Under the pieces are notes generated by a model, which was given only the letters and a program-made list of their open reading frames with translations, had not been told where the DNA came from and made no database searches. DNA of 24,000 bases. Origin: Methylocaldum szegediense (GTDB taxonomy: Bacteria; Pseudomonadota; Gammaproteobacteria; Methylococcales; Methylococcaceae). Of the stretch, positions 5,582-13,019 are shown piece by piece. The stretch lies in assembly GCF_949769195.1 (NCBI RefSeq), contig NZ_OX458334.1:1723-25722 (forward strand), written 5' to 3'. Each line of letters opens with the position of its first letter. The first letter of the stretch is position 1. The translations under genes were made by a program, and so were the position numbers.

Positions 5582-5829
5582 AACAAATACTCCTATTTAT
5601 CTATTTCAAAATAGGGCTTCTTTTGTTCCTGGATAGCGACTCCAGGAACCCGCAAAAGCCCGTCGCGGCTGCTGGTTTCTCCCTTTTACGTGCCGAGCCT
5701 ACCAGCAAAAGAGCACGGTATAATGATAACTAAAGTTATCACTCTGGGCAACAAAAAAACACGTTTAAATTCGATAATAAATACCCTCCTTATACTGCGC
5801 TCAAACACTTCCATTAAACCATTAGATAC

Positions 5830-6429
5830 TCAGAAAATACCCGCTTGACCGGAAACCCACCGGAAAGCCCCGGCCCACACGCCGGAGCCAGAAATCGGAA
5901 CCCACGCCCCCGCCCCCAAGGGCGGGAGCAACCGGCCGGCGAACCCGACCGGGAAGGCGAACACCGGCAGGCCGCGCGAAACCGCGCAACTGGCGGCCAG
6001 CAGGGAACCGCGCGAGACAGGCGAAGCGAAGAACACCACGCACCCCGCCGAGGCCTGCGCCACCACCGCCCGAGTGCGCGCGACAAGGCGGGCGGACAGA
6101 GGCACGGACGATGGGCCGCCGGCCCACCACGCCACCGAACCGCCGGCGGCCGCGAAGGCCTCCACGGCGGAAACCGCCGAAGCCGGGCCGGCGCCCGCGC
6201 CGCCGGGGCCGAAGGCGCACAGGCACGAAACCCGCGCGGCAGGGACGCCGCGCCCCGACGGAGCCACGGCGCAGCCAAGGACGGCGGCATCGACGCCAAC
6301 ACAGCAGCCCACCGCGAGCGAACGCCCCGACGCCATCAGCGACCGGCACACGGCCGCGACCAAAGCGGAGGCCTCCGGCGGCAGCGAGCGCGAACCCGCC
6401 ACCGATACGACGGCGCGAGGACTAGCCAC
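5830..6429 (-). CDS. DprA/Smf-like Rossmann-domain protein encoded almost without adenine
   Basis: The frame of track ORF 5830..6858, with a proposed GTG start at 6427-6429 overlapping the upstream stop (GTGGCTAG). It aligns by eye to the E. coli Smf core: VSVAGSRSLPP / IVGSRNPSPYG; GCCVGVDAAV / SGLARGIDGVA; ARTRAVVAQASAGCVVFFASPVSRGSLLAASCAVSRGLPVFAFP / [42 protein letters not shown]. Only 15 A occur in 600 coding-strand nt. Confidence 0.5.
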   Translation of the reverse strand: MASPRAVVSVAGSRSLPPEASALVAAVCRSLMASGRSLAVGCCVGVDAAVLGCAVAPSGRGVPAARVSCLCAFGPGGAGAGPASAVSAVEAFAAAGGSVAWWAGGPSSVPLSARLVARTRAVVAQASAGCVVFFASPVSRGSLLAASCAVSRGLPVFAFPVGFAGRLLPPLGAGAWVPISGSGVWAGAFRWVSGQAGIF

Positions 6430-6893
6430 GGCCGAACACCCCAGCCAGGCAAGCCAGCGGCCGGAGCAAGCCGCGGGCCACGGCCACCGACACGCCGGGA
6501 GGCAAGCACACCTTGACCGCGCAGACCGGCACGGGCAGGCCGACAGCCGAGAAGACCGGCGAACCGGCGGAACCAGGACGGGCCACGGCGCGCCACCCGA
6601 GCCGCGACGCCACCAAGGCCGCGAACAGCCCGGCCGCGGCCGGAGACCGGACCGGAACGAAAAGGCAGGCGGGCGCCGCCGAGAAACAGGACGAAGCCGA
6701 GAACACCCGCACCGCCCACACAAGCCGGCCGCAGCGACGAGCCACGACAGGCGCCGAGCGCCGGACGGCGGGAACGGAAACGAAACCGGAACGAGCCATG
6801 ACACACCCCCAAAACCGAGAACCAAAACCGCCCCGCCAACCCCGGCGGGACACCCCAAAAGAGAGAAAAACCGGAAAAAAGAGAGAAAACGCC
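5847..6893. other. Extreme strand-composition tract: + strand nearly T-free, - strand nearly A-free
   Basis: A hand count finds 14 T in 1047 nt on the + strand (about 1.3%). There is no T at all from 6515 to 6798 (284 nt). The flanks have ordinary T content. Confidence 0.9.
6422..6799 (-). CDS. Adenine-starved ORF (125 aa), unknown function
   Basis: ATG at 6797-6799 is preceded by GGGGGTGTGTC. The coding strand has only four A: one in the ATG start, two in a single AAG codon (6512-6514), and one in the TAG stop (6422-6424). The product consists of G/A/V/L/F/S/P/R/C/W, apart from the initiator Met and one Lys. Coding status is unproven because A-free sequence cannot contain stop codons. Confidence 0.35.
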   Translation of the reverse strand: MARSGFVSVPAVRRSAPVVARRCGRLVWAVRVFSASSCFSAAPACLFVPVRSPAAAGLFAALVASRLGWRAVARPGSAGSPVFSAVGLPVPVCAVKVCLPPGVSVAVARGLLRPLACLAGVFGRG

Positions 6894-7101
6894 TTCAGAA
6901 CAGACCGGGGCGAGCACGGCCGCAAGGGCAGGCGCGCCGTACTGCGACGGTGGGAGGTTGGTGGACTGGCTACGGAGAGACTAGCGACTGGTTGCAGCGA
7001 ACCTTGAGCGGCGCGCCTGGCGAAGCGAACCCTTGCGGCCGCGCGCAGTCCCCGGCTACAAACCGGGCGTTTTCTCTCTTTTCCGGTTTTTCTCGTGGGG
7101 T
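6851..7101. promoter_or_regulatory. Long imperfect hairpin (~250 nt) upstream of the A-starved ORFs
   Basis: Outer stem: 6863-6893 pairs with 7066-7094, about 29 bp with a 2-nt bulge. Inner stems: 6905-6910/7050-7055 (6 bp), 6918-6928/7030-7040 (11 bp perfect), 6929-6938/7010-7019 (10 bp perfect). A GCGAAGCGAA bulge sits at 7020-7029. Confidence 0.6.
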
Positions 7102-7909
7102 ACTCCCCACGCCTTTGTCCGAGCCGCAGCGAAGCCGGAGGGCGCGAGCACGGCGACCCGGAGCCATGCGGAGGGGCCGCGCGCAGCGACTGGAGGCGAA
7201 GCGGAGGCGAGTTCTCGCGTCTGGCGTCAGCCAGTCGCGCAGTCAACCCGGAGCCGAGCGGAGCTGGGCGAGCACCTTGGATGGATGGCGAAGCGCAGGG
7301 AAAGCGACGCCGGGTCTCGCTTCGGCGCTCGGATCGTCAGTCCAAGCCGGACAGGCGGGAGCATGGATACTGCCAATCCGTTGTCGGATCTACCGTGGGG
7401 TGAGCGCGAAGGGCGCGGCGTCGCGAGCTTGCGAAGCTCGAGAGCAGAGCCGCGCGCCTTCGGTACCGATACCCGACTTCTGACCGGGCTGGGAGCCAGG
7501 GACGGCGGCAAGGGACGTGACGGCAGGGATGCCGGCGCGGTCCCTTGCGGGTGGGAGATGGACTTTACGGGTTTCGCGTGTGAAAGCCGCCCCGGAAGCA
7601 TAGCGTGCTCCGGCTGGCGCGCGAGCTGCGAGGAGCGCGGGCATGCCCTAAGCATGCCCATAAGCGCGACGTAGCGGCTCGGCGAGCGCCTGTCGGGATG
7701 CAGCGCGTGCGTGAGGGGGCGGTTTTGTTGAGCGAAAGGGATTCCGTTTGGGGGGGCGGAAAGGGGGGAACGCCGAGCGCGGCTTCCTCTGGAAGCAAGC
7801 GAGGCGGGGGATGTAACGCGTCAAATGGCCGTGGTTATCAACACTTTTGTCTTTTTTACCAAGGATCACATCGGATTTCCACTTCCGTTTTCTCGACTCA
7901 ATTTGAGCC

Positions 7910-8997
7910 GTCTTCGTCTCTTCTTCATCAGGTCTCAGTTCAAACGCGAGCCGACCACTGCCTTTGAAAAGGTTCAGGCGTCTTAATCCCTTCTTAATCA
8001 GGTCTCGTTTCAAACGTCATCGAGTACTCGACGTGTGAGGAAAACACTCACGTCTTAATCCCTTCTTAATCAGGTCTCGTTTCAAACACGACTCGGTGGT
8101 TCGGAATGGCTCAGGACCAGGTCTTAATCCCTTCTTAATCAGGTCTCGTTTCAAACCCAAAAGCGCCCAGGAATTGTTGTTGCAATACGCAGTCTTAATC
8201 CCTTCTTAATCAGGTCTCGTTTCAAACCAATCAAGCAAGCAAGAACCGATAGGAGAATATCGTCTTAATCCCTTCTTAATCAGGTCTCGTTTCAAACTCG
8301 CCGGACTACTCACTGGCTAATGATCGAAAAGGTCTTAATCCCTTCTTAATCAGGTCTCGTTTCAAACGATCGAACAACTTCAAAAACAATTTCCTTTGGT
8401 CCGTCTTAATCCCTTCTTAATCAGGTCTCGTTTCAAACCCATGAAGATTATCAACCTGACTCCTCACCCAATGTCTTAATCCCTTCTTAATCAGGTCTCG
8501 TTTCAAACATGTATACCCGTCAGAGCCTCCTGTCTGCGGCAGTCTTAATCCCTTCTTAATCAGGTCTCGTTTCAAACATGGGCTCATACTACGAAACTGA
8601 TTTAGGCCTGCGGTCTTAATCCCTTCTTAATCAGGTCTCGTTTCAAACGCTAAGGTAGGTAAAAAAATGGCTAAAAAAGAAATGTCTTAATCCCTTCTTA
8701 ATCAGGTCTCGTTTCAAACAAATGGGAAGTCAACTTTGGCAAAGAATAAGGTCTTAATCCCTTCTTAATCAGGTCTCGTTTCAAACGGGGCAGATAATGG
8801 CAGATAAAAATTCGGATTGGTCTTAATCCCTTCTTAATCAGGTCTCGTTTCAAACCAATCCAGAAGCCGAACTCGAGGTCTACAGCCCCGTCTTAATCCC
8901 TTCTTAATCAGGTCTCGTTTCAAACAGAATTTGCCCTTGCGGTTGCTTATAACTGGGGGCAGTCTTAATCCCTTCTTAATCAGGTCTCGTTTCAAAC
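7910..8997 (-). CRISPR. CRISPR array: 15 identical 36-nt repeats, one degenerate terminal repeat, 15 spacers (31-36 nt)
   Basis: The + strand repeat GTCTTAATCCCTTCTTAATCAGGTCTCGTTTCAAAC starts at 7980, 8052, 8121, 8192, 8262, 8332, 8403, 8473, 8542, 8613, 8684, 8751, 8820, 8890 and 8962. A degenerate copy with 6 mismatches lies at 7910-7945. The - strand call is inferred from the degenerate repeat marking the trailer end, and from the - strand reading ending in ATTAAGAC (compare ATTGAAAC-type tags). The array itself is near certain. The strand call deserves about 0.6. Confidence 0.9.
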
Positions 8998-9108
8998 AGC
9001 TCGCGTCTAAAACACCCTCATATTCAATGTCTTACAAAGGGGGTTGTAGAAAATTCTCCGTTCGGAAAAGTTACGCTCATTCTCCCGAGAGTTCATCGTT
9101 TGCCTCTA

Positions 9109-9471
9109 TCAGGCGCTAACCTTCCTCTTGGTTCTGGTCTCGTCCTGCTGGCGCTCGATAATGGCGCGGCTCCGTTCAAGCTCGAAGATTTCGACTCCCT
9201 GCTCGCGGGTAATCTTCCCTTCCTCGATCAACATACACAAGCCTTTCCGCATCGCGTACATGCGGATCACGAGCGGATCGCTCGGCGCCTCTTGGCGCAG
9301 TCTTTCGATGCCGTCCCATGCCTCCTGCTGGTAGCAGTAGTTGTCTGGGTCAGTTCTCGGGTCAGGAGGAGGGTTCTCTTCCGCCGCAGTTACGCTGATC
9401 GGAATCGAGAAGAAAAGCAACGCGGCGAGCGCCGGCGGAATCGCTACATTTTTAAGGTCCGGAATCGTCAT
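9109..9471 (-). CDS. Small secreted protein, unknown function
   Basis: The start at MTIPDLKNVAIPPALAALLFFSIPISVTA looks like a signal peptide. Its ATG (9469-9471) overlaps the recombinase stop as ATGA. Confidence 0.55.
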   Translation of the reverse strand: MTIPDLKNVAIPPALAALLFFSIPISVTAAEENPPPDPRTDPDNYCYQQEAWDGIERLRQEAPSDPLVIRMYAMRKGLCMLIEEGKITREQGVEIFELERSRAIIERQQDETRTKRKVSA

Positions 9472-12906: not shown

Positions 12907-13019
12907 TGGGAGCAACGGCAGGACTTGAACCCGCACCCTTCCTGCCCATATCATGAAGCTTCCGAGGTCTCCATAATATGTAGAAAGCAGGATGCTCTAT
13001 CCGGTTGAGCTACGCTGCT
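12907..13019 (-). tRNA. tRNA-like gene (113 nt) with a ~36-nt insertion in the anticodon arm; anticodon not assignable
   Basis: The - strand reads AGCAGCG-TA-GCTCAACCGGATAGAGC-A-TCCTG-[43 nt]-CAGGA-AGGGT-GCGGGTTCAAGTCCTGC-CGTTGCT-C-CCA. The acceptor stem, D arm, T arm (GTTCAAGTC) and encoded CCA are canonical. The anticodon loop is replaced by 43 nt that contain a 12-bp stem (CATATTATGGAG / CTTCATGATATG) with a 10-nt loop. Confidence 0.6.

Follow-up and report, generated by a model that had tools for sequence, protein, structure and literature searches.

The hairpin and the genes downstream of it

The window, that is the whole stretch of 24,000 nucleotides (nt) of Methylocaldum szegediense DNA analysed here, contains at 6852-7101 an imperfect DNA hairpin of about 250 nt, which lies directly upstream of two adenine-poor genes, open reading frame A (ORF-A) and a DprA-like gene. 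Both genes are read from the minus strand, and the plus strand of the window is their template; we refer below to the plus strand as the template sense and to the minus strand as the coding sense. The genes and the parts of the hairpin are as follows.

5830 to 6429, minus strand: DprA-like gene (Smf/DprA Rossmann fold, SLOG), about 199 amino acids, GTG start, adenine-poor, overlapping the stop codon of ORF-A
6422 to 6799, minus strand: ORF-A, 125 amino acids, ATG at 6799, adenine-poor, conserved beside the hairpin
6852 to 6893, plus strand: left (5′) arm of the outer stem, T-free and A-rich, ACCCCAAAAGAGAGAAAAACCGGAAAAAAGAGAGAAAACGCC, pairing with 7066-7101
6894 to 6901, plus strand: template-strand side of an internal loop (8x8 nt), TTCAGAAC, unpaired in the minimum-energy fold, with a probability of being unpaired, P(unpaired), of 0.56-0.99
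6902 to 6944, plus strand: left halves of the inner stems, including 6920-6925, the partner of a -35-like box
6945 to 7008, plus strand: apical region of about 64 nt, poorly self-complementary, with weak local pairing only, varying between relatives
7058 to 7065, plus strand: the other, non-template-like side of the internal loop, ACAAACCG, read as a pre-melted bubble
7066 to 7101, plus strand: right (3′) arm of the outer stem, A-free and T-rich, pairing with the arm at 6852-6893

The hairpin is recovered by a repeat finder and by folding the plus strand as single-stranded DNA (ssDNA), with all the arms that a preliminary description of the sequence had reported at 6851-7101. The T-free arm described there (6863-6893, pairing with 7066-7094) corresponds to two pairs of repeats, 6863-6887/7070-7094 (25 nt, 92% complementary) and 6877-6893/7066-7082 (17 nt, 100% complementary), and in the folds the outer stem extends further, ACCCCA at 6852-6857 pairing with TGGGGT at 7096-7101. 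The inner stems consist of a stem of 6 base pairs (bp), CCGGGG/CCCCGG, seen in the folds at 6905-6910/7050-7055, of a 15-nt stem at 6914-6928/7030-7044 (93% complementary) which includes the perfect 11-bp helix GGCCGCAAGGG/CCCTTGCGGCC, and of a perfect stem at 6929-6939/7009-7019. The first two have the lengths initially given, 6 and 11 bp, while the last one has 11 bp instead of 10.

The stability of the hairpin exceeds what would be expected by chance, as the preliminary description had supposed: the plus strand folds as ssDNA with an energy of -80.9 kcal/mol, compared to -48.4 +/- 3.9 kcal/mol for dinucleotide shuffles (z = -8.4), and none of 200 shuffles is as stable. The corresponding values for the minus strand are -77.9 kcal/mol and z = -9.1. 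In a strand-symmetric scan the hairpin is the top palindrome of the 24 kb, with a score of 44 (26 for the runner-up), and it is present in a single copy in the window.

The public contig ERR11151912_244 (24,506 bp) is identical to the window, in the reverse orientation, and is broken inside an array of clustered regularly interspaced short palindromic repeats (CRISPR) which lies on the right of the hairpin. It links positions 1 and 24000 of the window through 1,724 bp; we infer that the molecule is a plasmid that forms a circle of about 25.7 kb, and that only 1.7 kb of it are missing from the window.

Conservation and covariation

We collected 83 related loci, named L001 and so on below, using the DprA-like protein. 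A palindrome of 130-250 nt is found within about 30-120 nt of the start of ORF-A in about 24 of the 32 non-identical loci that have enough upstream sequence. Its orientation and its position beside ORF-A are constant across several gammaproteobacterial lineages, while its sequence has turned over. A blastn search (word size 11) with 6800-7150 against 72,556 plasmids only matches the Methylomagnum relative, and comparisons with known phage DNA add no other match. Even in the closest relative, L056, the apical region has diverged and the stems are kept.

The 14 hairpins that were folded have the same anatomy. In coding sense, they begin with an A-rich, T-free outer arm, followed by the internal loop, a stem with CAAGG and a variable apex, and they continue with a stem with CCTTGnnn, the other side of the loop and a T-rich, A-free arm of consensus GGCGTTTTCTYTYTTTTTTCCGGTTTTTCT, after which comes ORF-A. 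This last arm, which is the complement of the left arm in the window, is the part of the element whose sequence varies least from locus to locus. The outer stems differ from one subgroup to another, with GAGAAAAACCGG..., AAAAATATAAAAAG... or GGCGGCAAAATAC...

Covariation was measured in a well-aligned sister subgroup of 10 sequences (63 pairs), with 500 shuffles and slid alignments as controls. The cells are paired in 95.2% of cases (81.0% in the shuffles), both sides have changed in a compensatory manner in 30 of the 63 pairs (19.1 in the shuffles), and the covariation score is 0.453, compared to 0.183 in the shuffles and at most 0.106 in the slid controls; none of the 500 shuffles matched the observed pairing, double-change or covariation values. 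The subgroup to which the window belongs was scored for the outer stem only, because its centre aligns poorly.

This conservation bears on the idea that the hairpin could be a mobile or recombination element, either a miniature inverted-repeat transposable element with terminal inverted repeats of about 40 nt or a site of the attC or IS200/IS605 type, which happens to lie upstream of the genes by chance. It does have long terminal inverted repeats around a core of about 170 nt, the plasmid encodes two serine recombinases, and attC sites likewise fold on one strand only. We nevertheless consider this as highly improbable, considering that the element occurs once in the window, that its synteny with ORF-A is fixed in about 24 loci with compensatory evolution, and that the plasmid has no integron or tyrosine integrase and no Y1/HUH transposase. 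Regarding attC in particular, such sites lie beside an integron integrase and form imperfect hairpins that measure about 57-141 nt and have the core sites RYYYAAC/GTTRRRY; the element described here is longer, and its loop motif GTTCTGA does not fit GTTRRRY.

Two further identities were examined and rejected. The hairpin is not a tracrRNA or the leader of a CRISPR array, since it is conserved in the related loci whereas the array is missing from all 83 of them, and it is not the non-coding RNA of a retron, of a diversity-generating retroelement or of a defence reverse transcriptase, as there is no reverse transcriptase in the open reading frames scanned or among the genes of the source contig.

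The strand that folds

The two strands of such a palindrome can be distinguished by their wobbles, since where one strand forms a G·T pair its complement has an A·C mismatch. For the subgroup of 10 sequences, the consensus fold has an energy of -65.75 kcal/mol in template sense, with 63 pairs, and of -35.26 kcal/mol in coding sense; about 62 G·U and 3 A·C cells are counted from the pair tables in template sense, and one G·U pair is invariant. The isolated helix mismatches in the strand-symmetric palindromes of the 32 loci are 29 template-sense wobbles versus 12 coding-sense ones. All 13 hairpins that were defined by hand are more stable in the template strand, with a mean difference of 7.4 kcal/mol, and the outer stem in the high-GC subgroup of the window has 14 G·U versus 5 A·C cells. 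That the G·T wobbles are nearly confined to the strand complementary to the mRNA shows that the template DNA strand, which is the plus strand of the window, is the folding strand. It is important to note that this assignment rests mainly on the relatives, because the asymmetry in the window's own copy is small. An automatic comparison of strand stabilities was not relied on, since it is biased (the domains were picked on the template-sense fold).

The folded molecule is more likely to be DNA than RNA. For an RNA to contain the entire hairpin in template sense, its transcription would have to begin within a T-free part of the plus strand longer than 1 kb (there is no T in 6800-6893, and 14 T in 5847-6893), where no sigma-70 promoter is possible.

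The same wobbles speak to another explanation, according to which the element would function as double-stranded DNA (dsDNA) or as RNA. In the first case it could be a large palindromic operator for divergent promoters; in the second, an mRNA starting upstream of 7101 could have it as a structured 5′ leader or attenuator. The wobbles sit on the strand complementary to the mRNA, at positions where an mRNA leader would itself have A·C mismatches, and Rfam 15 gives no match to the hairpin or its surroundings, either at the gathering threshold or, over 5600-8000, at E <= 1. On the contrary, this explanation agrees with the presence of a small GC hairpin and a T run between the large hairpin and the ATG, with the operator-like palindrome found between the hairpin and the ATG in L007, L010 and L014, with the divergent genes on the right side in L002 and L036, and with the fact that the better -35/-10 pair points rightwards in dsDNA. 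However, a divergent promoter does not need a 250-nt palindrome, and the right-hand neighbour gene is co-directional or absent in L008/L035 and L001; the right side has no conserved open reading frame, and its nucleotide similarity is limited to about 200 nt (7115-7308) in the closest relative, L056, and to 54 nt (7137-7190) in L074. All in all, we regard a dsDNA or RNA element as unlikely.

Promoter-like boxes and predicted start site

Sequences resembling the -35 and -10 elements that the preliminary description had proposed to look for in the stem are present on the right arm, as the weak match TTGCGG-18-TACAAA. Together with the sequences that precede ORF-A, they define the following features.

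7033 to 7038, plus strand: -35-like hexamer TTGCGG, on the right arm, fully paired with 6920-6925
7057 to 7062, plus strand: -10-like hexamer TACAAA, 18 nt past the -35-like box, followed by CCG and by the outer stem from G7066
6887 to 6893, minus strand: predicted transcription start zone, about 7 nt past the -10-like box, placed from the geometry of the fold
6800 to 6886, minus strand: adenine-free 5′ leader, with outer-arm sequence, a small GC hairpin and T run (6852-6829) and, ahead of the ATG, the Shine-Dalgarno-like GGGGGTG

The 18-nt spacer between the two boxes is paired, and the first T of the -10-like box, T7057 (T-12), pairs with A6902, with a P(unpaired) of 0.28. This probability rises to 0.96-0.99 from A7058 to C7064 and is 0.55 for G7065, and the stem resumes with G7066·C6893, so that A-11 to position -4 are unpaired. 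An open promoter of the sigma-70 type keeps its DNA double-stranded as far as -12 and exposes A-11 and T-7 in single-stranded form. The geometry of the folded right arm thus resembles that of a pre-melted sigma-70 promoter.

The position of the boxes is conserved in the relatives. The -35 position is occupied by TTGnnn (TTGACA, TTGCAA, TTGATG, TTGCTG, TTGCAG) and the -10 position by TAGACA, TACCCT, TATCAT, TATCTT, TAGCCT, TATCCT, TACCAT, TACACT, CATAGT, CATCCT or CAGCCT. By eye, a TTGnnn, a spacer of 16-18 nt and a [T/C]AnnnT-like hexamer located 2-3 nt before the outer stem can be read in about 22 of 26 loci, and no such pair can be read at that place in L014, L003, L050 and L060. In the aligned subgroup (alignment A3, pair 42-171), the first T of the -10-like hexamer closes the helix. 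The opposite side of the loop, which reads in coding sense TGTTCTGAA in the window and TGTTTTGAA or TGTTYTGAA/GTTAGAA elsewhere, never has an A at the second position, and never a TA at -10. We used this position-specific comparison because a generic best-promoter score is too noisy when applied to both arms (the T-rich arms give false matches). In dsDNA, the strand that faces ORF-A only has TTGCGG-17-TGTTCT.

On the basis of this geometry, the RNA is predicted to start at about the template C6890, giving G-UUUUCUCUC. The coding-sense adenine-free run opens at 6893, directly after the A's of the loop (6895/6894), and the first A past 6893 is that of the ATG of ORF-A at 6799, at offset +94. Similarly, the first A after the start of the outer arm falls in an ATG in L001 (+119), L015 (+62) and L018 (+128); this ATG is the mapped start of ORF-A in the window and in L001. 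In L002, whose proposed ORF-A start is a GTG, the first A is that of a TAG at +489. Since a sigma-70 -10 box needs an A on the coding strand, an ordinary promoter is impossible in the interval that separates the hairpin from ORF-A in these loci. The adenine-free stretch ends with the DprA-like gene and therefore coincides with the predicted hairpin-driven transcription unit. The small GC hairpin and T run of the leader are a terminator-like match.

The adenine-poor genes

The T-poor stretch of the plus strand is coding on the minus strand. The base composition has a three-base periodicity in phase with the ATG at 6799 down to about 6420; this ATG, which the preliminary description had placed downstream of the hairpin, thus opens a real coding frame, and the periodicity changes frame exactly at the boundary between ORF-A and the DprA-like gene. 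ORF-A has tblastn matches in 44 related loci and no family match in Pfam, PHROG or PADLOC. The DprA-like protein has 317 homologs at E <= 1e-3, mostly from Methylococcales, Nitrosococcus, Thioalkalivibrio and metagenomes, and several of these homologs match Pfam PF02481. A profile built from 15 of these homologs matches DprA structures in the PDB (E = 4.5e-4). The AlphaFold model has a pLDDT of 91.9, and Foldseek relates it to ShosA and to the DprA of H. pylori and R. palustris, with query-normalised TM scores of 0.54-0.62.

The DprA-like homologs consist almost entirely of amino acids that have A-free codons. Among the residual A's are those of the ATG of ORF-A, of the TAG and TGA stops and of a few conserved codons, such as those for the Asp in the GxDAA motif and for a Lys kept in the compared ORF-A homologs. 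The sequence is not that of a pseudogene hypermutated from A to G: this is excluded by the periodic frames, the conserved motifs of the 317 homologs, the confident DprA-like model and the location of the A's at starts, stops and conserved residues.

Adenine poverty is common to more than 300 homologs, in high-GC and low-GC hosts alike, and is also seen behind ordinary promoters. The coding-strand A content is 1-9% in most of the 83 related loci, and 15-21% in the three lowest-GC loci. In the Chromatiales loci L021 (about 9100-9150), L023 (about 9140-9175) and L029 (about 9150-9217), the large hairpin is replaced beside ORF-A by TTGCAT/TTGAAT-16-TATAAT overlapping a small AT-rich palindrome. 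Because these relatives use an ordinary promoter, adenine avoidance is a trait of the gene family that is not explained by the hairpin alone. A literature search on adenine-free genes found nothing relevant, and a paper on the composition of leading regions is silent on adenine.

Beyond the DprA-like gene, the genes have an ordinary composition; they include those of a conserved 305-amino-acid protein and of Gp157, annotated in PHROGs as Mu Gam-like end protection.

A probable single-strand promoter

We argue that the hairpin is probably a single-strand DNA promoter, by analogy with Frpo. Frpo is a stem-loop of the entering strand of conjugative plasmids that rebuilds -35 and -10 elements and drives early genes until it is inactivated by complementary-strand synthesis (PMC9849209; PMC11541004).

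In the mechanism that we propose, the plus strand, which is the template of ORF-A and of the DprA-like gene, would become single-stranded, and 6852-7101 would fold back. The right arm would then play the role of the non-template strand, with TTGCGG in a duplex, the 18-nt duplex spacer, and TACAAA opening into the 8x8-nt loop. The host RNA polymerase with sigma-70 would bind this ready fork junction, start near the template C6890 and copy the A-rich left arm toward ORF-A; the left arm (6852-6893) would thus be the template for the first 40 nt or so of the RNA. Because a rU:dA hybrid is weak, the outer DNA stem could re-anneal behind the polymerase and free the 5′ end of the RNA. The polymerase would go on to read the single strand, which is free of T, through both genes, and would produce a message whose only adenines are in start codons, stop codons and a few essential codons. 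Last, complementary-strand synthesis would destroy the hairpin. Since only a poor -10 (TGTTCT) faces the genes in dsDNA, expression would then be limited to the single-stranded stage.

The preliminary description had likened the hairpin to the Frpo/ssi elements of the leading regions of conjugative plasmids, among which are Frpo1 and Frpo2 of F and ssi of ColIb-P9, on IncF and IncI1 plasmids. The likeness is supported as a functional analogy, based on covariation, template-strand folding, the boxes and the start of the adenine-free run, and it does not extend to the sequence, which has no detectable similarity. Like Frpo/ssi, the element is a long imperfect hairpin on the template strand, of a stability beyond chance, whose stem rebuilds -35 and -10 elements directed toward the downstream genes, and the structure is lost (here, is predicted to be lost) in dsDNA. 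Genes for handling incoming ssDNA lie downstream in both cases, ssb and psiB in F and the DprA-like gene here (PMC9849209; PMC11541004). The cargo would indeed suit incoming DNA, which we count in favour of this interpretation: a DprA-like, ssDNA-binding fold, and further downstream the Gp157/Mu Gam-like end-protection gene. On the contrary, the present element is distinguished by the position of its -10 box, at a fork junction where an 8x8-nt loop opens, by its A/T-rich outer stem of about 40 bp, made of polypurine and polypyrimidine arms, and by its adenine-free transcription unit, and the hosts are Methylococcales, Nitrosococcus and relatives, instead of Enterobacteria.

Other hairpins are known to be read as single strands. 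The minus-strand origin of M13/f1 and the single-strand origins ssoA/ssoU of rolling-circle replicons are strand-specific ssDNA hairpins that mimic promoters and are read by the host RNA polymerase; they differ in that a short primer RNA is made, and no genes are read from the single strand. The promoters of the virion RNA polymerase of phage N4 are also template-strand DNA hairpins, with a stem of 5-7 bp, extruded from supercoiled dsDNA and read by a dedicated phage polymerase, whereas the fold described here has 250 nt and boxes of the sigma-70 type. In the conjugative plasmids of the pLS20 family, the establishment genes are said to have predicted ssDNA promoters and the early genes to be read from the entering strand. 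These are Gram-positive plasmids with their own transfer genes, whose sequence is unrelated to this hairpin, and we know of no report of adenine-free genes on them.

The M13 and sso examples, like the ssi signals, illustrate another hypothesis, which is that the hairpin could be a single-strand initiation site, where RNA polymerase or primase makes a short primer for the complementary strand; promoter activity may coexist with this function, and the title of a paper by Masai and Arai reportedly points to combined priming and promoter activity for Frpo itself. The structural evidence is the same, namely a DNA fold specific to one strand and a stem with promoter-like boxes. It would not, however, be necessary for a primer site to lie always directly upstream of ORF-A in a fixed orientation, nor to be followed by an adenine-free run from the predicted start through two genes. 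Moreover, the replicon is not of the rolling-circle type, with a HUH Rep and a double-strand origin: no rolling-circle Rep is found, and its replication genes code for a TrfA-type initiator and an HTH_36/DnaD_N protein. We consider a site that only primes replication as rather unlikely.

If we return to the single-strand promoter, it may be, although this is a much more tentative proposal, that the hairpin and the T-free template of about 1 kb form a single cassette, devoted to the single-stranded stage of plasmids that have no conjugation genes, from which DNA-protecting proteins would be expressed while the ssDNA enters. The cassette could act after natural transformation or mobilisation in trans, for instance. 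The T-free template could escape an attack on ssDNA directed at thymine, such as DarT-type ADP-ribosylation, or could keep off the single-stranded DNA-binding protein SSB and RecA; or the A-free message could escape attacks on RNA directed at adenine, by A-specific RNases or mRNA ADP-ribosylation.

To our knowledge, the single-strand promoters described so far are the Frpo-like elements of enterobacterial conjugative plasmids and a few candidates elsewhere. The present family is unrelated to them in sequence, and its folding strand has been identified by comparison; it is found in environmental gammaproteobacteria (methanotrophs, nitrifiers, sulfur oxidisers), on plasmids that have no transfer genes. 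If our interpretation is correct, expression from single-stranded DNA is a more general plasmid strategy than the biology of conjugation suggests, and promoters of this type can be searched for with a simple rule, based on the fork-junction geometry. It would also become possible to test the nearly adenine-free genes, known from more than 300 homologs, given that the predicted start site is where the adenine-free run begins.

Several observations weigh against a single-strand promoter. Some of them concern the window's own copy. The energy gap between its two strands is just -3.0 kcal/mol, the coding sense has a slight advantage in the shuffle z-scores, and a crude count of the mismatches in its hairpin gives 7 G·T versus 2 A·C, the other way; the strongest covariation test was carried out with the sister subgroup, to which the window does not belong. 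Its hexamers are weak, with 7 of 12 consensus matches, a generic promoter scan reports no promoter in the hairpin, and in dsDNA TTGCGG-18-TACAAA would point away from the genes. In L021, L023 and L029, it is an ordinary promoter, TTGCAT-16-TATAAT, together with a small operator, that precedes the adenine-poor genes.

Other observations concern the plasmid. Unlike in the case of Frpo/ssi, there is no sequence homology and no location in a leading region, beside an origin of transfer (oriT) on the transferred strand. No relaxase, coupling protein, type IV secretion system gene or recognised oriT was found on the plasmid of about 25.7 kb; an oriT may nevertheless be used in trans. Two complete relatives, Methylomagnum ishizawai pRS11DPr6 (28.5 kb) and Methylobacter YRD-M1 unnamed2 (61.8 kb), likewise have no transfer genes, and all five relatives in PLSDB are typed as non-mobilizable by MOB-suite. 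The idea that the hairpin belongs to the leading region of a conjugative plasmid is thus unsupported, because neither the reconstructed plasmid nor the two complete relatives have relaxase or type IV secretion genes, and since the replicon has no transfer genes the hairpin lies in no definable leading region. The plus strand might become single-stranded by mobilisation in trans, by natural transformation or by some other route.

Plasmid context and neighbouring elements

Besides TrfA and a second, HTH_36/DnaD_N protein, the plasmid encodes KfrA, the two serine recombinases, ParA, an ImmA/IrrE-HTH protein and a Dcm/Vsr/Eco29kI-like restriction-modification set. A search for iterons, which could have given the direction of the replication fork, found none. 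The 1.7 kb that close the circle (L084 7769-9492) code for a PIN_3 toxin-like protein, an 87-amino-acid protein and a SRAP protein; the SRAP family shields abasic sites in single-stranded DNA. Genes of GspH/FimT-type pseudopilins are found in Nitrosococcus oceani plasmid A (L003 4647-5168) and in pRS11DPr6 (L082 14435-14869), and a gene of the CDA family of deaminases lies beside the module in L001 (2710-3312); this plasmid has neither.

The region between the hairpin and the CRISPR array (7100-7850) has a GC content of about 68%, with a plus strand that is G-rich and T-poor, and contains repeated motifs of the GCGAAGCG type. A coding function of 7100-7960 was rejected, considering that there is no conservation at the protein level. 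The array itself (7910-8997) is an orphan one, with 15 perfect repeats of 36 nt (GTCTTAATCCCTTCTTAATCAGGTCTCGTTTCAAAC) and a degenerate copy at about 7911-7946, whose position suggests that the leader is on the right, at about 9000-9100. The plasmid of about 25.7 kb lacks cas genes, and the repeat is absent from all 83 related loci.

A tRNA-like sequence is present on the minus strand at 12910-13019. It scores 47 bits with the Rfam tRNA model and has an insertion of 39 nt in the anticodon loop; ARAGORN reports no tRNA.

Last, the non-coding segment 5671-5751 has a core of 47 nt (5671-5717) that is 91.5% identical to plasmids of Nitrosococcus oceani and N. watsonii. Beside this core, the palindrome TGATAACTAAAGTTATCA and a promoter-like TTGCCC-17-TATCAT (5751-5723) lie upstream of a small gene that runs from 5581 to 5378. 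This segment is probably the ordinary promoter and operator of the genes downstream of the DprA-like gene.

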